This document shows positions 1 to 42,307 of a stretch of DNA of 42,307 nucleotides, piece after piece. How positions within the stretch are numbered: the first letter of the stretch is position 1; every line of letters starts with the position of its first letter. This DNA is from a virus (lineage: Duplodnaviria; Heunggongvirae; Uroviricota; Caudoviricetes). The translations under genes and the position numbers were made by a program. The DNA is taken from the IMG/VR virus record IMGVR_UViG_2541047692_000013. The stretch is one strand, 5' to 3'. Under the pieces are notes generated by a model. That model had not been told where the DNA came from. It was given only the letters and a program-made list of their open reading frames with translations, and did not search any database.

Positions 1-516
1 ATGAAATTAAAAAAATGTCTTCTGCCTGTGGCAATGTTAGCGTCATTTACTCTGGCAGGATGCCAGTCAAATGCTGATGATCATGCCGCCGATGTTTATC
101 AAACCGATCAACTGAATACCAAACAAGAAACTAAAACCGTTAATATTATTTCCATTCTTCCCGCAAAAGTTGCCGTAGACAACGCCCAAAATAAACGGAA
201 CGCACAAGCCTTCGGCGCGCTTATTGGCGCTGTCGCTGGCGGTGTTATCGGCCACAACGTCGGGTCTGGCAGCAATTCCGGAACGACAGCAGGTGCAGTT
301 GGCGGCGGAGCTGTTGGCGCAGCAGCGGGTTCTATGGTGAATGATAAAACCTTAGTGGAAGGTGTTTCTTTAACATATAAGGAAGGCACCAAAGTGTATA
401 CCTCCACCCAGGTGGGTAAAGAGTGCCAGTTTACGACAGGTTTAGCCGTTGTTATTACCACGACGTATAACGAAACGCGTATTCAGCCAAATACCAAATG
501 TCCTGAAAAGAGCTAA
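1..516 (+). CDS. glycine-zipper lipoprotein (YcfJ-like); probable host gene
   Basis: Lipoprotein signal with lipobox LAGC; Gly-rich zipper segment GALIGAVAGGVIGHNVGSG typical of YcfJ/Rick_17kDa_Anti-type proteins; lies outside the phage lysis cassette. Confidence 0.55.
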   Translation: MKLKKCLLPVAMLASFTLAGCQSNADDHAADVYQTDQLNTKQETKTVNIISILPAKVAVDNAQNKRNAQAFGALIGAVAGGVIGHNVGSGSNSGTTAGAVGGGAVGAAAGSMVNDKTLVEGVSLTYKEGTKVYTSTQVGKECQFTTGLAVVITTTYNETRIQPNTKCPEKS

Positions 517-531
517 TAATCAGGAGGAGTC

Positions 532-1071
532 ATGAAGAAAGTTTTTCTTTGCGCCATCTTAGCCTCCTTAAGCTATCCGGCTATCGCCTCATCATTGCAG
601 GATCAACTCTCGGCTGTCGCAGAAGCGGAACAGCAAGGTAAAAATGAAGAGCAAAGGCAGCATGACGAATGGGTCGCGGAGCGCAACAGGGAAATCCAGC
701 AAGAGAAGCAACGTCGCGCAAACGCCCAGGCCGCGGCTAATAAAAGAGCGGCAACGGCAGCAGCGAATAAGAAAGCTCGTCAGGATAAACTGGACGCCGA
801 AGCCACTGCGGACAAAAAACGCGATCAAAGTTATGAAGATGAGCTACGTAGCTTAGAGATTCAGAAGCAAAAACTGGCGCTGGCGAAAGAAGAAGCCCGC
901 GTTAAGCGCGAAAACGAATTTATCGATCAGGAACTGAAGCACAAAGCTGCGCAAACCGATGTGGTGCAATCTGAAGCTGACGCAAACAGAAATATGACTG
1001 AAGGCGGTCGCGATCTGATGAAAAGCGTGGGTAAAGCAGAAGAGAACAAATCGGACAGCTGGTTTAACTAA
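532..1071 (+). CDS. secreted highly charged coiled-coil protein, function unknown; probable host gene
   Basis: ATG at 532 preceded by SD caggagg; N-terminal signal peptide (MKKVFLCAILASLSYPAIA); K/E/R/A-rich low-complexity body. Confidence 0.5.
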   Translation: MKKVFLCAILASLSYPAIASSLQDQLSAVAEAEQQGKNEEQRQHDEWVAERNREIQQEKQRRANAQAAANKRAATAAANKKARQDKLDAEATADKKRDQSYEDELRSLEIQKQKLALAKEEARVKRENEFIDQELKHKAAQTDVVQSEADANRNMTEGGRDLMKSVGKAEENKSDSWFN

Positions 1072-1115
1072 GCGATGTCAGTAACTTCAAGCCTATGATT
1101 CGTGAGTATAAAAAA

Positions 1116-1141
1116 CCCTCTGTAGTAACAGAGGGTTTTGT
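1116..1141 (+). terminator. intrinsic terminator after the two left-flank genes
   Basis: 8-bp stem ccctctgt/acagaggg (1116-1123 / 1128-1135), loop agta, followed by TTTT; A-run upstream so possibly bidirectional. Confidence 0.6.
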
Positions 1142-1289
1142 TCATTCATAGTACAGGGTTCAAATCATTCCCACTCAATTATTTACGACAATCATAACCA
1201 ATTGAGTGATAACATTTTTCCAAAACTTCATTTTTCTAGTACCGTTTTATATACCGTCACCGGAAATCAGTACCATGAAAAATGCCATG

Positions 1290-1772
1290 CTATCTGGTCA
1301 GGGTATCGTATTGTTTTTCGCAGACTCTTCCGGCTTCGGCTGCCCGGTCAGCATACTCTGCCAGTTGTCTGTTTCTCTCGAGAGATTTGCTGAGCACGTC
1401 GGCAAGCAAAACTCCGGTGTCTGCGGCTGACGTCCCAGCGCCGACAATGGCGTTATACTGCCTGAGCTGCTCACGGATGGCAAAGAGTTGTTGCTGCAAC
1501 CGGCCAGCGCGAGCGGCAGCATCAAGAGCATCATTGCGCGCCTGGTCGATCCTCTGCTGCGCTTCACGTTCATTGATCGATTTCTCCTGTTCGTAGTGCT
1601 GACGAACTATCTCATCTTCAGCTTTGCGGTCTTCCTTCGCCTGCGCATACCCGGCATCGTACTGACGACTGCCGTGTGCATTCCAGGCTACAACTCCTGA
1701 TATGACCAGAACAGCAAGCATCGCCATGATAACCAACTGTTTCCAGTATGCTTTTGCGAATGCCCAGATCAT
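1290..1772 (-). CDS. i-spanin (Rz-like)
   Basis: N-terminal TM helix then coiled-coil periplasmic domain; start overlaps endolysin stop (ATGA); last gene of lysis cassette; contains embedded out-of-frame lipoprotein ORF. Confidence 0.6.
1298..1573 (-). CDS. o-spanin (Rz1-like lipoprotein), embedded in Rz in a different frame
   Basis: Signal peptide with lipobox LALAGC followed by short proline-rich mature domain; lies entirely inside the Rz ORF, the classic Rz/Rz1 arrangement. Confidence 0.55.
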   Translation of the reverse strand: MNVKRSRGSTRRAMMLLMLPLALAGCSNNSLPSVSSSGSITPLSALGRQPQTPEFCLPTCSANLSRETDNWQSMLTGQPKPEESAKNNTIP

Positions 1773-2398
1773 ACCGCCAGCACCTTACTGGCAGTGATGT
1801 ATCGCGCGCGCCGGTCATCAATGCCGTTCCGGCCACCATTGATAAGCAGAGTTACACGTGCAATATCTCCGGTATACTTCATGCAACCTTTGCTGGAGAA
1901 GAACCACGCCGCGCTACGAGCCGCGTATTCGTCCTGCGCCAACAGTTCAGGATTCTCCAGCAGGTCAACTTTCAGACCGTTTCCACAGTCACGATAGTTA
2001 TTCAAACCGGTAATCTGGATAAGCCCGCGCCCACGGTAATTCCAGCCATCACCAGGGGCATTGTTCCCCATGCGTTTGCTGTACACCAGATTGGCGATCG
2101 CTCGCTGGCGCTCGAGTGGCAATGGTGGCTCACCAGCACGGCGACCAAGTGCATTAGCCTGCCCCTGAGTGAGACGCCCAGCCCGAACGAAGTTAGCCAG
2201 TCCGCTGACGCTGTAGTTGAAATTCTCCTGCAACCGGGTGAAGCCCCCAGACTCATGCCCGACTTGAGCAATAAACATTGCCTGATCTTCTGCTTTGCTG
2301 ATACCAAACTCTTTCATCGCAGAAGTTATATGCGAGAACCAGCGTGCGGCCAGCGCCTCGCTAATACCAGCAGCTCGCTGGAATTGTTTAATCTCCAT
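1769..2398 (-). CDS. endolysin, glycoside hydrolase family 19 (chitinase-like)
   Basis: Start reassigned to ATG 2396-2398 (MEIKQF...) with SD gaggt 6 nt upstream; the ORF-track N-terminal extension is discounted. GH19-like motifs ([24 protein letters not shown]). Confidence 0.8.
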
Positions 2399-2696
2399 GT
2401 TTAGACCTCGATATTTTGAAAATCTGAACAACGTTACCGCGTGTTTTAATAACCGCGGCAAGCATGACAGCGTTGATAATGACCTCAGATAAATCCACAG
2501 CCATTGGCGTGCGTAACCAGATTGCATAGACGACACGAACAGGAATACTGGCCGCAGCAACAATAAGGAAATAAGCAAGCCACCCTCCCCATCTTCGATG
2601 TTGAGAGCCGTTACGCCGGAATGTGACAACGCGAATTGCTATGCCAGTACAAATAACTGCATTGGTGATAAGCAAAAAAAACTCATGCGTTACCAT
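2388..2696 (-). CDS. holin-like small membrane protein
   Basis: 102 aa, three predicted TM segments; strong SD ggggaga; directly upstream of endolysin. Confidence 0.5.
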
Positions 2697-3087
2697 CGTC
2701 TTTTCTCCCCGGAATTAAATCGCGTGGATTGTCTGAACGGTGGTAGAGCCATATACCAATACGCACAGCGACAATTGCTGACACGAATGCGCCAGCAGAG
2801 AAAACAATCCCTTTTTCAAAAGAGTCCTGCGTGATGGTAGGGATCAGGCTGGCTATGCCGATAAGAATTGATGCTGCTGGTTTGTAGAAAAGAAGTCCGC
2901 AGAGAAAGCTAAGCATCGATAAGAGTACGCGACGATGAATTGGGTACTCTACCGCAGAGGTAACAAAAATTACCGCACCAGCCAAAGACCCTAAAGCAAC
3001 CTCAGGAGGAACTCCTGCTATAACCGCAGCAAGAGAACTCATACTAAGCCATTGATTTAAAGATTCGCTGGTTAGCTGAACTGACAT
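2683..3087 (-). CDS. holin or lysis-associated multi-TM membrane protein
   Basis: Start taken as ATG 3085-3087 (MSVQLT...) with SD ggtgg at 5 nt; several hydrophobic helices; first gene of lysis cassette. Confidence 0.45.
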   Translation of the reverse strand: MSVQLTSESLNQWLSMSSLAAVIAGVPPEVALGSLAGAVIFVTSAVEYPIHRRVLLSMLSFLCGLLFYKPAASILIGIASLIPTITQDSFEKGIVFSAGAFVSAIVAVRIGIWLYHRSDNPRDLIPGRKDDGNA

Positions 3088-3241: not shown

Positions 3242-5182
3242 ATGTCTTATTTAAAATACAGAACAGATATTGATGGGCTGCGAGCTATTGCGGTTTTGCT
3301 GGTCGTGCTGTACCACGCAAACTTTCCTATTCATGGTGGTTTTATTGGTGTAGATGTTTTTTTCGTCATATCAGGATATCTCATTACCAACATCATATAT
3401 AAAGAGACTAAAAGAAATATTTTTTCATTCCTTAATTTTTACAAACGTCGAATAAAGCGATTGCTCCCAGCTTTTGCTTTTCTTCTTTTATTTTTATTTG
3501 TTTACTGCAAATTATATTTGATGCCAGATGAACTTATATCATTCTCTAAAAGTGCGGTATACGCTCTTCTTGGCATAAGCAATTTCTATTTTTTTAGTAG
3601 CACAGGTTACTTTAACTCAACCTCTTATGAACCGCTTTTACACACATGGTCGCTTTCCGTTGAAGAGCAGTTCTACATTGTATGGCCTTTCATCGTTTTC
3701 ATGCTCGCTCGGAACTCAGGGACAAAAAAAGCAATAATAATATCCTCATTACTATTTATTGTATTCCTTGGTATTTCACAGTATGGAGCGGTTAATTATA
3801 AAACAGCAGCGTATCTCCTACTGCCTTTTAGGTTCTTTGAGTTGCTCTCAGGTGCCCTACTTGCTATCTATAAAGATTCAATAACAAAACATCTGCGCCA
3901 CGGTTCTGTAATTTCACTGGTCGGCGTAATGCTGATTGTGTTGAGTTCATTATTTATAAATTCTAACACGCCATTTCCTGGGTTCACTGTTTTGCCTACA
4001 TGTTTAGGCGCTGTAATGCTTATTGCTGCAGGTGACTCATCCAAAAACTTCATTTCTAAAGTGCTGTCTTTAACTCCAGTTGTTTATGTAGGAAGAATTT
4101 CCTACTCTCTTTATTTATGGCACTGGCCTGTACTGATTCTTGCTGAATACAGGGGTATCGATCTTACGGCCTTAAATGCGACGGCGCTCATACTTATCGC
4201 ATTCATCATGGCAAGCATAAGCTATCACTTCGTTGAAAAGCCATTTAGGAAGGATTCGCTGCAATATTTCAGGACTGCATTTATAACCATCTACTTGATA
4301 CCATTAATAGTATCCGCTGCCTATGCAGCGTACATTTTAAAAAATGATGGTTTTCGCGCCAAAAGTTCAGAGTTAGTATCTGAATTAGAAGAGAGAAACG
4401 CGACAAATATTATGCGCCCACAGTGTATTGATAAATTATTTATCGGTAATGTAAATGACTGTCATCTTGGCGTTAATAAAGGCGAAGTAGATGGCGTGCT
4501 TCTTGGTGACTCCTTTGGTAATGCATATGCTTACTTTATTGATGAACTTGCGAAAGATGCTGGAATATCAATAACAGATACTACATATAGCTCAACACCT
4601 GTAATATCAGGAATTTATGTGCAGGATATCAGAAATAAGATATCTGACATAGATGCTAACCTGATAATGACATATACAAAAAACAGGCTGGAGTATGCAG
4701 CAAAACAAAAGTTCGCGATAATTTCCGTTTTTTGGGATCAGTACGGGCCACAAAATAATTACTTCCGTATCTTCGATAAAAACGGTGACGTATCGGAGAA
4801 TGCTTACCAGTTGCAATCTGAAGCAATAAAATATCTGCTGTCCAATGGCGTGAAAGTTTACATCATTGCAAGACCTTACCAGTCTATTGGCCCTGCTGCG
4901 ATAAACAAACTGCGCCAAATTAAGCTACGGCATGGGGATGTAACAACTGAAAAATATGAATACGGCGTAAAGAAAGATGATCGGATAGAATACAAGTTAA
5001 AGCAGGAGTTCCCTCAGATAACGCTAATCGATCCTAACGATGTACTTTGCCACAAAGGGGAATGTGATGCCATCGTGGATGGGAAGATCATTTTCAGAAC
5101 TGATGGTTCACACCTGAATGCTGTTGGAGCAAAAAAAATCGGGGAAGAGTATTTGAAAAACTACGCAAACCCATTTCGATAA
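3242..5182 (+). CDS. O-antigen acetyltransferase-like (acyltransferase-3 membrane domain plus SGNH-type C-terminal domain); serotype-conversion moron
   Basis: N-terminal multi-TM acyltransferase-3 signature (DGLRAIAVLLVVLYH..., FFVISGYLIT); long periplasmic C-terminal domain as in OafA-type enzymes; visibly AT-rich; converges on tailspike. Confidence 0.75.
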   Translation: MSYLKYRTDIDGLRAIAVLLVVLYHANFPIHGGFIGVDVFFVISGYLITNIIYKETKRNIFSFLNFYKRRIKRLLPAFAFLLLFLFVYCKLYLMPDELISFSKSAVYALLGISNFYFFSSTGYFNSTSYEPLLHTWSLSVEEQFYIVWPFIVFMLARNSGTKKAIIISSLLFIVFLGISQYGAVNYKTAAYLLLPFRFFELLSGALLAIYKDSITKHLRHGSVISLVGVMLIVLSSLFINSNTPFPGFTVLPTCLGAVMLIAAGDSSKNFISKVLSLTPVVYVGRISYSLYLWHWPVLILAEYRGIDLTALNATALILIAFIMASISYHFVEKPFRKDSLQYFRTAFITIYLIPLIVSAAYAAYILKNDGFRAKSSELVSELEERNATNIMRPQCIDKLFIGNVNDCHLGVNKGEVDGVLLGDSFGNAYAYFIDELAKDAGISITDTTYSSTPVISGIYVQDIRNKISDIDANLIMTYTKNRLEYAAKQKFAIISVFWDQYGPQNNYFRIFDKNGDVSENAYQLQSEAIKYLLSNGVKVYIIARPYQSIGPAAINKLRQIKLRHGDVTTEKYEYGVKKDDRIEYKLKQEFPQITLIDPNDVLCHKGECDAIVDGKIIFRTDGSHLNAVGAKKIGEEYLKNYANPFR

Positions 5183-7903: not shown

Positions 7904-7919
7904 GGCCGCAAGAGCGGCC
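7904..7919. terminator. bidirectional terminator hairpin between convergent genes
   Basis: Stem ggccgc/gcggcc with loop aaga; T-rich on the minus-strand side, A-rich on the plus side. Confidence 0.5.
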
Positions 7920-8647
7920 TATCGTTTCGCTTTGTGCTCGTCCCAGCACGTTTTGCACCATGCCATTAAGCCATCCGCATTTTGATTATTAGGGTAAAAG
8001 CTGGTTCGTTTTCTGCGGACATTACAAATTGGGCACCACTTCATATGACGTGTATTCTTTGGGCCATCTAGACACCTTGCACACCACTTAGTCAATCCAT
8101 CTGGATTTTTTGACGATTTCCTGAATTTTTCATATGGAAGGTTTATTCTGCATCGCAAACACTGCTTGCGGGCACTTGAAACTTCGTTAGCTGATTCTTC
8201 TTTTGACGGCGATACAGAAGGTATTCTTGCTGGCTCTGATACTGCCTGAGGTGCTTTTTTAGGTGACTGAGACGATACGTCATCACCAGGGAATCTTCCA
8301 TGATATGCCGGACACGTTGACACTCCAGGTGGAAGCTCTGCTGTAAATGGCTTTGGCTGAATCAGTTGCCTCTCTTTTGCTAACTCCTGCTGTTTATAAT
8401 ATGTCTGGATTACCGCGCTATCATAAGCAGGAGGTACGGAAATATTAGGCGCATTATCTCCCGTTTTTTGAAACTGAGTGGAGGTGTGTTCTATCACCTG
8501 TGTACGATTAATCGTTATCTCCCCATCTTCAGTCTTTATCGTTTTGTTACGATTAACGACCGTACGATCAGAGATCTTAGTCTTGTTCTGGTGAAGGACA
8601 TAAATAATCACCGCAACCACACCAACAACTATCCAGAAAACTTCCAT
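7919..8647 (-). CDS. membrane-anchored protein with two C-terminal CxxC...CxxC zinc-ribbon-like repeats; function unknown
   Basis: N-terminal TM helix (VFWIVVGVVAVIIYVL); repeats CLRCRINLPYEKF...WCARC and CPICNVRRKRTSF...WCKTC; perfect operator 20 bp upstream of start. Confidence 0.5.
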   Translation of the reverse strand: MEVFWIVVGVVAVIIYVLHQNKTKISDRTVVNRNKTIKTEDGEITINRTQVIEHTSTQFQKTGDNAPNISVPPAYDSAVIQTYYKQQELAKERQLIQPKPFTAELPPGVSTCPAYHGRFPGDDVSSQSPKKAPQAVSEPARIPSVSPSKEESANEVSSARKQCLRCRINLPYEKFRKSSKNPDGLTKWCARCLDGPKNTRHMKWCPICNVRRKRTSFYPNNQNADGLMAWCKTCWDEHKAKR

Positions 8648-8888: not shown

Positions 8889-9044
8889 ATGCGTTAAGCA
8901 CAGCTATATCCGAATTATGGTGGGCTGGGCAGGGGTCCGAAAGGACGCCGGTACCACTTAGGCCGGTACGCCAACCTTGTCCAGTTCACCACCAGTAATT
9001 GGCGTTGCGGTGGTGATTAAAATCACTAAGTGGAGATAACCACC

Positions 9045-9755
9045 ATGGCTAATGCTCAAACTTCCATCTTCAAATTTGAATCTGTTAACCCTATCCGTTC
9101 CATCATTATCGATGGCCAACCATGGTTTGTAGCCCAAGACGTTTGTAGTGCGCTGCGTATCCAAAACGTCACCCAAGCACTTGAAAAACTGGATGATGAT
9201 GAAAGGTCTATGTTCAACATAGGGCATGAACATCGTGCAATTTTTGACAGCCGAGTAAAAGAGATCAACATCATCTCCGAGTCAGGCCTCTACACACTGA
9301 TCCTCAGATGCCGCGACGCAGTGACACCAGGCACTATCCCCTACCGCTTTCGTAAATGGGTTACAGGTGAGGTTCTTCCTCAGATCCGCCGCACCGGAAG
9401 TTACATTAAAAACTCGCTCCCGCAGGAAGAACGCATAAAGATGGTTGCCGACCAGGTAGCCAACGCCACGGCGTCAGCAGTAATGCAGGCGATGAAGATA
9501 GAGAACAAAACCTACAGTGCCCCACTGAAGCCCGGCTACCGCAGTCTGATTCACTCGCCGTCTGGTGTTCTCGGCCTGACGGAGAACTCACTGCTGATGA
9601 ATCTGCTGAACCAGTTGCAGGACGACGGGCATGATGTATCGGGCGCGGCAGCGGAGCTGACCACCATGTTCTGCTACATCGTCGGTGTGAGCAAGTGCCT
9701 GCGTGATATCCAGACCCACGCGGAGTATATCAACGACAAAGCAGGGTTCTTCTGA
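9045..9755 (+). CDS. antirepressor (Bro-N / Ant family)
   Basis: Start taken as ATG 9045 with SD ggag; N-terminal Bro-N-like motif (IDGQPWFVAQDVCSALRI...LYTLILRCR...FRKWVTGEVLPQIRRTGSY). Confidence 0.75.
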   Translation: MANAQTSIFKFESVNPIRSIIIDGQPWFVAQDVCSALRIQNVTQALEKLDDDERSMFNIGHEHRAIFDSRVKEINIISESGLYTLILRCRDAVTPGTIPYRFRKWVTGEVLPQIRRTGSYIKNSLPQEERIKMVADQVANATASAVMQAMKIENKTYSAPLKPGYRSLIHSPSGVLGLTENSLLMNLLNQLQDDGHDVSGAAAELTTMFCYIVGVSKCLRDIQTHAEYINDKAGFF

Positions 9756-27392: not shown

Positions 27393-27469
27393 GTGGCATT
27401 AGCTCAGTTGGACAGAGCAACCGCCTTCTAAGCGGTCGGTCGCAGGTTCGAATCCTGCATGCCACGCCA
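27393..27469 (+). tRNA. tRNA-Arg (anticodon UCU)
   Basis: 77-nt cloverleaf by hand: acceptor GTGGCAT/ATGCCAC, D-arm GCTC/GAGC, anticodon stem ACCGC/GCGGT with loop CTTCTAA, T-arm GCAGG-TTCGAAT-CCTGC, discriminator G, encoded CCA. Confidence 0.85.
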
Positions 27470-41056: not shown

Positions 41057-42307
41057 TTATTCCCCCGCCATCCACTTCTCAAACTTCGACGGGGAGAACG
41101 GAATCAGATCCGTATGCTCCCCGTTAATCCAGGAATCAATCATATCGGCCCACTGCTGCAACATGTAGGCGCGCTGTCTGGCGTATTCCGCTTTGTTATA
41201 TACGGCGCGCACACCTTTCTGCTCATGTGCCAGAGCCTTTTCAATCCAGTCTGAAGGATAACCAGCCTCATGCAACAACGTACTGGCTGTACGGCGCATA
41301 TCGTGTACGGTGAAGCCCTGAATATGCTCACCATCTTCATTTATTATTTTCACCGTTCTGTCGATCAGAGAGTTCAGCGCGGCATTAGATAATGGCTTCC
41401 GGAAATTGTAACGACCAGGAACCAGATATTCACTTCCACCAGCGCACATCTGCAACCCAACCAATATATCCTGTGCCTGTTTAGGCAGGTAAATAACGTG
41501 CGCCCGGCTTCCCTTCATGCGGTCTGAAGGAATTGTCCATGTCCATTTTTTAAAATCTATTTCATCCCACGTTGCATTGGTGAATTCGCCTTTACGAACC
41601 ATAGTGATAAGCACCAGCTTTAAAGCCATTTTCATAGTGCCCATAGCACCAATGGCATCCAGCGTGCGGAAGAACAGACCAATTTCTTCTGGTGTCAGTG
41701 TTCGCTCTCGTGGTTTAAATATGGCGATAGACGAAGGTTTAATGTCAGCCGCAGGATTAAACAAACCATGACCACGGTCATTGGCATGACGGTATACGCT
41801 GCTGATGATCTCCCTGGCCTGCACTGCTGTTGCCCGGCCGCCGCGTTCGACAATCCGGTCACACAAATCACGAACCATCGATGTGGTAATTTCAGTCATC
41901 ATTTTGTTGCCAAGAACCGGAAGTATGTCACGGTCGATCACCACCTGCTTCATTGCGCGGGTACTGTCAGCTAGGATGACATGTTTCATATAACTGTCGG
42001 TATGTACCGCAAACGTCTCGGCACCACGAATCTTTTTGATACCGTCACGTTTAGCCGCAGCCGGTGACTGGCCTGCTTTAAGCAGCTTCTTTGCAGCAAT
42101 CAGTTCTTCTCGCGCTTCTGCCAGGCTGATACCGTCACGCCCATACTGCCCGATTACCAGTGTTTCGCGGCGACCGTTGATACGGTAGTCATAGCGAAAC
42201 GAGACCGTGCCTGACGTAAGCACAGCTACATACAGCCCGTCACGATCGGAGACCTTGTACAGTTTGTCCTGCGGCTTGAGGTTTTTTAATTTTGTATCGG
42301 TAAGCAC
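41057..42307 (-). CDS. int: tyrosine integrase, P4-type
   Basis: 416 aa; N-terminal MLTDTKLKNLKP...YKVSD...GLY motif of P4-like integrases; C-terminal catalytic region with HDMRRT and terminal Tyr region; start codon at the window edge. Confidence 0.85.
   Translation of the reverse strand: MLTDTKLKNLKPQDKLYKVSDRDGLYVAVLTSGTVSFRYDYRINGRRETLVIGQYGRDGISLAEAREELIAAKKLLKAGQSPAAAKRDGIKKIRGAETFAVHTDSYMKHVILADSTRAMKQVVIDRDILPVLGNKMMTEITTSMVRDLCDRIVERGGRATAVQAREIISSVYRHANDRGHGLFNPAADIKPSSIAIFKPRERTLTPEEIGLFFRTLDAIGAMGTMKMALKLVLITMVRKGEFTNATWDEIDFKKWTWTIPSDRMKGSRAHVIYLPKQAQDILVGLQMCAGGSEYLVPGRYNFRKPLSNAALNSLIDRTVKIINEDGEHIQGFTVHDMRRTASTLLHEAGYPSDWIEKALAHEQKGVRAVYNKAEYARQRAYMLQQWADMIDSWINGEHTDLIPFSPSKFEKWMAGE

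Follow-up and report, generated by a model that had tools for sequence, protein, structure and literature searches.

A putative two-component spanin encoded by nested genes in an epsilon15/phiV10-like Escherichia coli prophage

Does the last gene of a phage lysis cassette contain a second, genuine gene in another reading frame, and would the two products act together as a spanin? The question is raised by a 42,307-nt stretch of viral DNA (IMG/VR record IMGVR_UViG_2541047692_000013, hereafter the window), in which an earlier note had read positions 1290-1772 as an Rz/Rz1 spanin pair with a lipoprotein ORF lying wholly inside the Rz-like ORF. We have investigated this locus by family searches, lipoprotein pattern rules, synonymous recoding and comparison with relatives. 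The pair is, with a probability of about 0.93, the two-component spanin of an epsilon15/phiV10-like (Uetakevirus) E. coli prophage.

The nested genes and their predicted products

The larger gene, encoding the Rz-like i-spanin, runs from 1290 to 1772 on the minus strand, exactly the coordinates given in the earlier note. It is present in the ORF list, starts with ATG and encodes 160 aa in 483 nt. Its product matched Pfam family PF10721 (DUF2514) over profile positions 1-160 of 161, with an E-value of 1.5e-42 and 145.9 bits against a cutoff of 26, as well as the PHROG family phrog_312 (“Rz-like spanin,” E=2e-59). The protein contains a single hydrophobic segment (residues 13-31, Kyte-Doolittle 19-residue mean of 2.37), the remainder being hydrophilic. 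This is compatible with the one N-terminal transmembrane domain (TMD) of an i-spanin, a type II inner-membrane protein. The AF2 model, a single-sequence monomer that carries no information on coiled-coil or complex formation, comprised helices 2-110 and 116-159 joined by a linker at residues 111-115, with a mean pLDDT of 85.3. The predicted periplasmic domain would thus be helical and composed of two linked segments; a TMD followed by helix-linker-helix is the layout described for i-spanins (Kongari et al. 2018, PMC6139136). C151 is the only cysteine of Rz.

The smaller gene, encoding the Rz1-like o-spanin, occupies 1298..1573 on the same strand (276 nt, ATG start, 91-aa precursor). Since it starts at nucleotide 199 of the Rz ORF, which places it in the +1 frame, and its stop lies 8 nt ahead of the Rz stop, the gene is wholly embedded in Rz, as the earlier note had claimed and as in two-component spanins of the embedded +1-frame type. 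A Shine-Dalgarno (SD) sequence, AGGAG, can be read at 1584..1588 (minus strand), within the Rz coding sequence and 10 nt 5' of the ATG at 1573. The translated product matched phrog_11621 (“Rz-like spanin,” PHROG, E=9e-37).

Pattern rules predicted a signal peptide at residues 1-25 of Rz1, followed by Cys26 of a lipobox LAGC, the same lipobox that the earlier note had pointed out, with Ser at +2 and Asn at +3. The residues after the Cys read SNNSLPSV. The precursor read from the ATG at 1573 satisfied both the PROSITE PS00013 rule (K/R among the first seven residues, Cys at 15-35) and the stricter DOLOP pattern, and its n-region holds five K/R residues. These patterns are suggestive of a signal peptidase II substrate, as is proper to an o-spanin, and the residue at +2 is not Asp, which would be compatible with sorting to the outer membrane. 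Mature Rz1 would be 66 aa long, with 8 Pro (12%), 18 Ser+Thr and a conserved C56-x3-C60 (CxxxC). C56 and C60 of Rz1 and C151 of Rz, the predicted periplasmic cysteines of the pair, were all three invariant in the Rz and Rz1 alignments.

The pair could be real and Rz1 nevertheless begin further downstream, at the internal Met14 or Met15 (ATG at 1534 or 1531). The precursor would then have 77-78 aa, and the earlier note could be taken to imply this shorter reading. Such a product would still contain the hydrophobic core and the lipobox, and a short n-region is also found in lambda Rz1. However, its Cys would stand at position 12-13 behind an n-region lacking K/R, both lipoprotein rules then fail, and the two codons have no SD sequence, the DNA upstream of them reading GACCAGGCGCGCA. 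Only the ATG at 1573 satisfied PS00013 and DOLOP; this codon and the AGGAG 10 nt upstream were invariant in all 59 of the distinct close relatives considered below, and the RefSeq records of phiV10 and epsilon15 also use the long start. On account of the two rules and the missing SD, we have discarded the internal starts as very improbable and retain the start at 1573.

Conservation of the embedded reading frame

An open frame carrying a lipobox might also arise by chance in an Ala/Arg/Gln-rich gene, in which case the embedded ORF would be untranslated and the DUF2514 protein the only real product. We have therefore recoded Rz 20,000 times with synonymous codons. An alternative frame was open for at least 91 codons in 33% of the recodings, and 5.5% of them contained a lipobox ORF of 40 aa or more that complied with the lipoprotein pattern rules, which are loose. 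The six frames of the window have 517 open segments of 40 aa or longer; six of these contained a rule-compliant lipobox ORF, and only YfgH and the embedded Rz1 look genuine among the six. Given the 5.5% of recodings that yield such an ORF, the length of the frame and its lipobox in a single sequence are weak evidence for Rz1. The presence of two further ORFs crossing the same DNA, one of 104 aa in antisense (1282..1596, plus strand) and one of 73 aa, would likewise fit a chance frame, and so would the lack of a PGAP call and of any Pfam or NCBIfam family match for Rz1. The NCBIfam search with all five lysis proteins gave no meaningful match. The 73-aa ORF (1618-1839, minus strand) lies on the same strand as the Rz gene that it overlaps.

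Comparison with relatives gave a different picture. The set comprised 80 IMG/VR loci together with phiV10, epsilon15, Skate, Tbat1_6, LPSTLL, seszw and Burkholderia phage KL4. A +1-frame lipobox ORF was kept in every one of the 64 distinct Rz DNA sequences, the lipobox taking the form LAGC, LSGC, LVGC or LTAC. The lipobox Cys and the CxxxC of Rz1 were retained in the same 64, and so was the conserved motif of the mature protein, or variants of it. The most distant relatives with this ORF were Skate, Tbat1_6, LPSTLL, seszw and KL4, with 34-49% Rz identity. The Rz1 ATG, the AGGAG and an uninterrupted frame were present in all of the distinct close relatives with a 483-nt gene (59/59), which also kept (A)GGAGAAA at the Rz1 SD. 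The 104-aa antisense ORF, taken as a control, was broken in 29 of these 59 and was for that reason rejected as an additional overlapping gene.

The variation within Rz pointed in the same direction. In the overlap, third-codon positions of Rz are second-codon positions of Rz1; 36% of the Rz third positions were polymorphic inside the overlap, against 61% outside (upstream of) it (Fisher p=0.003). The per-site diversity at these positions was likewise lower inside the overlap (Mann-Whitney p=0.0008). The conservation of the frame and the suppressed wobble variation of Rz in the overlap indicate that both frames are under purifying selection. We regard conservation across relatives as the decisive evidence that Rz1 is a gene. 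Together with the phrog_11621 match and the curation of the o-spanin in RefSeq and in SpaninDB families, it leaves an untranslated chance frame as an extremely improbable explanation.

Known relatives of the pair, its annotation and its distance from lambda

The nested genes have been described before. In RefSeq, both CDSs of phiV10 (YP_512284/YP_512285, gp30/gp30a) and both of epsilon15 (NP_848234/YP_850992, gp26/Rz1) are annotated as “Rz-like spanin” at positions equivalent to those of the window pair, with a signal peptidase II site noted for YP_512285. Rz shares 93% identity with its phiV10 counterpart and 86% with that of epsilon15, the respective values for Rz1 being 95% and 87%. In both phages the gene order (holin-like gene, holin, glycoside hydrolase family 19 (GH19) endolysin, Rz with Rz1, terminator/attP), the gene lengths (483 and 276 nt), the +1 frame, the LAGC lipobox and the cysteines are as in the window. 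Only point substitutions distinguish the genes, the +2 residue being Ser here and in epsilon15 and Arg in phiV10. The phage cassettes reside in a virion genome, whereas the one studied here is part of an integrated prophage beside yfgI.

SpaninDB joins proteins in a family at 40% or more identity over 40% or more of the periplasmic domain, a threshold that Rz and Rz1 exceed against the phiV10 and epsilon15 members of the Bcep176 family. The embedded Bcep176 i-spanin family and the matching o-spanin family contain epsilon15, phiV10, TL-2011b, SPN1S, E1 and eiAU-183 (PMC6139136, Tables 3 and 4). By these measures the pair belongs to a catalogued embedded spanin family and was already known. The Rz/Rz1 identification made in the earlier note is hence borne out by the PF10721, phrog_312 and phrog_11621 matches and by the phiV10/epsilon15 annotation, and the comparison with known pairs that it had proposed led to the same two genes, listed as Bcep176 families (PMC6139136). 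The feature is an ordinary one, already catalogued in the closely related phiV10 and epsilon15. Pair, family and architecture were catalogued between 2007 and 2018 (Summer et al. 2007; Kongari et al. 2018), and no new biology is involved.

The interest of the locus is mainly one of annotation. The o-spanin gene is genuine and conserved, and a lysis cassette without it would be incomplete. The earlier note had warned that such a gene is easily missed by ORF callers, and in every one of the 15 best-matching E. coli RefSeq genomes PGAP indeed lists only the DUF2514 gene and omits Rz1. Unannotated o-spanins numbered 196 among 528 systems in the survey of Kongari et al. (2018, PMC6139136). In phage records, the pair goes under the name of “endopeptidase,” “tail protein,” “lysin” or “hypothetical protein.” MK327140, MH717097, MZ375351 and MN187550 are among the many phage genomes in which the DUF2514 i-spanin is called “tail protein,” “lysin” or “endopeptidase,” and this misnaming in deposited phage genomes is a propagated mis-annotation. 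A second kind of error may concern the start of Rz1. In about half of the relatives (L001, L002, L015, L018 and about 30 others in our set), the Rz1 frame is open for 25-36 codons upstream and contains extra ATGs; a longest-ORF or first-ATG call would there give a 116- or 127-aa protein with the lipobox Cys at 51 or 62 and the signal peptide hidden. In the window, a stop 11 codons upstream of the Rz1 ATG prevents such over-extension.

More distant members of the same protein families are the siphovirus spanins of Skate, Vi II-E1 and Tbat1_6 (47-49% identity for Rz and 60-65% for Rz1). They have in common with the present pair the LAGC lipobox, the motif PEFCL.TCSANLSKE.DNWQ and the embedded +1 frame. 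They differ in the order of the cassette (endolysin, holin, spanins), in the type of endolysin and in the end of the o-spanin, which lies earlier, about 40-47 nt ahead of the Rz stop. T4 PseT.3/PseT.2 is likewise a two-component spanin whose o-spanin has two periplasmic cysteines, as here, but its genes are separated, its sequences unrelated and its i-spanin devoid of Cys. O-spanins with two periplasmic cysteines form the commonest class (240/526), and one cysteine in the i-spanin with two in the o-spanin is a pattern that this survey places among common classes (Kongari et al. 2018, PMC6139136).

The comparison with lambda Rz/Rz1, the experimentally characterised prototype, gave a mixed result. 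The earlier note had spoken of a lambda-type embedded arrangement, and as regards architecture this holds: in lambda, too, the o-spanin gene is wholly embedded in the +1 frame and the i-spanin gene is the last of the lysis cassette. The lambda i-spanin also has an N-terminal TMD and a helix-linker-helix, its partner is a small outer-membrane lipoprotein, and both carry periplasmic cysteines. The likeness does not extend to the sequence families. Neither Rz nor Rz1 matched PF03245 (Phage_lysis) or PF06085, even at E<=10, whereas lambda Rz and Rz1, run as positive controls, matched them at 2.6e-54 and 2.9e-20. Profile comparison by hhalign against lambda gave Rz a probability of 2.6% and Rz1 one of 15.7%, with the Rz1 alignment confined to the signal peptide. 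We have accordingly rejected homology to the lambda proteins, the BLASTP and hhalign matches being marginal and driven by composition or signal peptide. A D(N)WQ..L.G similarity to lambda at the Rz1 C-terminus looked suggestive in this comparison and was also set aside, being unsupported by hhalign.

The proteins differ in further respects. Mature Rz1 has 66 aa here and 41 in lambda. The mature part, which the earlier note had described as proline-rich, is so only moderately, since its 12% Pro compares with 24% (10/41) in lambda. Rz1 has two extra cysteines (CxxxC) here vs. one in lambda, and Rz one here vs. two in lambda. Finally, Rz1 ends 8 nt ahead of the Rz stop here, against 59 nt in lambda.

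The lysis cassette, its prophage and the proposed lysis pathway

The pair directly adjoins holin and endolysin genes, in an arrangement proper to a lysis cassette. On the minus strand, the cassette opens with a gene for a second holin-like membrane protein (Phage_holin_8; 2683..3087; PF16931 1e-11, phrog_198 3e-40), whose start is ATG 3087 in RefSeq vs. GTG 3096 in the ORF list. The holin (Phage_holin_3_7, 102 aa; 2388..2696; PF05449 2e-27, phrog_217 2e-35) and a 209-aa endolysin of the GH19 type (1769..2398; PF00182 1.6e-9, phrog_181 1e-90, same coordinates in RefSeq) follow, and Rz with the embedded Rz1 comes last. Stop and start codons overlap along the cassette; the Rz ATG overlaps the stop codon of the endolysin gene (ATGA).

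The 2.1-kb cassette shares 82-95% DNA identity with those of the Escherichia phages Phi05_1387 B, phiv142-3, TL-2011b and phiV10 and of the Salmonella phages epsilon15 and SPN1S, all of them epsilon15-like podoviruses (genus Uetakevirus). A region of the E. coli SCU-116 chromosome (NZ_CP051719), located 3' of pdeF-yfgG-yfgH-yfgI, matches the cassette at 99.9% identity. The window starts at the ATG of yfgH, a host gene for a glycine-zipper lipoprotein (1-516, plus strand) that is followed by the host gene yfgI (DUF5384; 532-1071, plus strand), the two forming the chromosomal flank. It ends at the start codon of the phage integrase gene (41057-42307). The prophage to which the cassette belongs is epsilon15/phiV10-like (Uetakevirus) and inserted next to yfgI of E. 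coli. With tailspike, tail, major head, portal and terminase genes between yfgH and the integrase, the window appears to hold essentially the whole prophage, whose left end is formed by the lysis cassette. YfgH and Rz1 share the lipobox LAGC.

Intact genes might still be relics of a defective, never-induced prophage, in which the pair would have no present function. Prophage decay does happen. In one close relative (L021, 1501-1983, IMGVR_UViG_2703718858_000001), a stop interrupts Rz at codon 26 (VIS*VV) and leaves the embedded Rz1 frame intact, so that this prophage appears to be knocked out for the i-spanin. The attR end of the present prophage, on the right, falls outside the window, which limits the check for completeness. 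Yet the window carries a full set of uninterrupted phage genes, including the whole lysis cassette, and none of the five lysis genes is shortened relative to phiV10 and epsilon15. We consider a defective prophage improbable and keep to the reading of a spanin pair that could serve a functional phage.

The proposed mechanism rests on analogy with lambda, since the proteins have no detectable sequence homology to that experimentally studied pair. In the lambda paradigm, Rz is an inner- and Rz1 an outer-membrane protein, the two bind through their C-termini, oligomers are disulfide-linked and the membranes fuse after murein loss (PMC6139136). For the pair studied here, the analysis documents the gene structure, its signals, the family membership and selection on both frames, and we infer localisation, complex formation and membrane fusion along these lines. 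The whole cassette, from the holin-like gene through holin and GH19 endolysin to Rz and Rz1, would be transcribed late during lytic growth as one minus-strand unit. Translation of Rz would probably be coupled to that of the endolysin through the ATGA overlap, and translation of Rz1 would start independently at the AGGAG and +1-frame ATG located within Rz. According to sequence rules, Rz would be anchored in the inner membrane by its N-terminal helix, exposing the helix-linker-helix domain to the periplasm. By the same rules, Rz1 would be exported, lipidated on Cys26, cut by signal peptidase II and, having Ser rather than Asp at +2, sent on to the outer membrane. The C-terminal parts of both proteins, encoded by the same DNA, may then bind across the periplasm, with C151 of Rz and C56 and C60 of Rz1 probably stabilising oligomers by disulfide bonds. 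With the peptidoglycan broken down by holin and endolysin, the complex would fuse inner and outer membranes and the virions would be released.

Our literature search retrieved no experiments on this locus or on any member of its spanin family; a 2012 study of the SPN1S lysis cassette by Lim et al. reportedly tested co-expression of Rz and Rz1.

The invariant C-x3-C of the o-spanin and the single C-terminal Cys of the i-spanin raise the possibility, which we think unlikely, of a disulfide scheme unlike the purely homotypic dimers of lambda. An intramolecular CxxxC bond could isomerise on complex formation, as proposed for T4 PseT.2, or a heterotypic Rz-Rz1 bond could form. Such an altered scheme, if true, would be a variant within known spanin biology. 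Since the C-terminal interaction domains of Rz and Rz1 would be encoded by the same DNA nearly to a shared stop, their evolution would be tightly coupled.

Downstream of Rz/Rz1 and directly after yfgI lies a GC-rich hairpin followed by a U-run (1106..1139, minus strand; RNA fold of -17.8 kcal/mol, z=-5.0), which on the plus strand is the yfgI terminator. Its sequence is AAAACCCTCTGT-agta-ACAGAGGGTTTT, and on the minus strand it is followed by UUUUUUAU. The hairpin aligns, nearly identical in sequence, with the rho-independent terminators annotated after Rz in phiV10 (L001 424-456) and epsilon15 (L002 426-455), and probably terminates the lysis operon. It also probably corresponds to the att core shared with the phage attP; the phage would then carry a copy of the host yfgI terminator. 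As the minus-strand hairpin is followed by UUUUUUAU, the reconstituted attL would also end the lysis operon in the prophage. The hairpin (1112-1139) became evident on direct folding but escaped a scan for consensus terminators, apparently since base pairing of the A/T runs consumes the T-tail.

Several other genes of the prophage were observed in passing. Divergent from the lysis cassette, at 3242-5182 (plus strand), a gene encodes a 646-aa protein in which an AT3 acyltransferase is joined to an SGNH domain. Its GC content is 35-39% vs. 45-53% in the flanks, and it occupies the slot of the O-antigen acetyltransferase gene oac in phiV10 and of the serotype-conversion genes in epsilon15; it is probably a moron of another type that modifies the O antigen. 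The region between the tailspike and virion structural genes contains the gene of a 242-aa protein of an uncharacterised PHROG (7919-8647, minus strand), the C-terminal segment of which resembles HNH / endonuclease VII / Lar-like motifs, and the adjoining gene of an Ant-like antirepressor (9030-9755, plus strand). A tRNA-Arg gene (anticodon TCT) is located inside the prophage at 27393-27469 on the plus strand, opposite to the strand of the surrounding structural genes.
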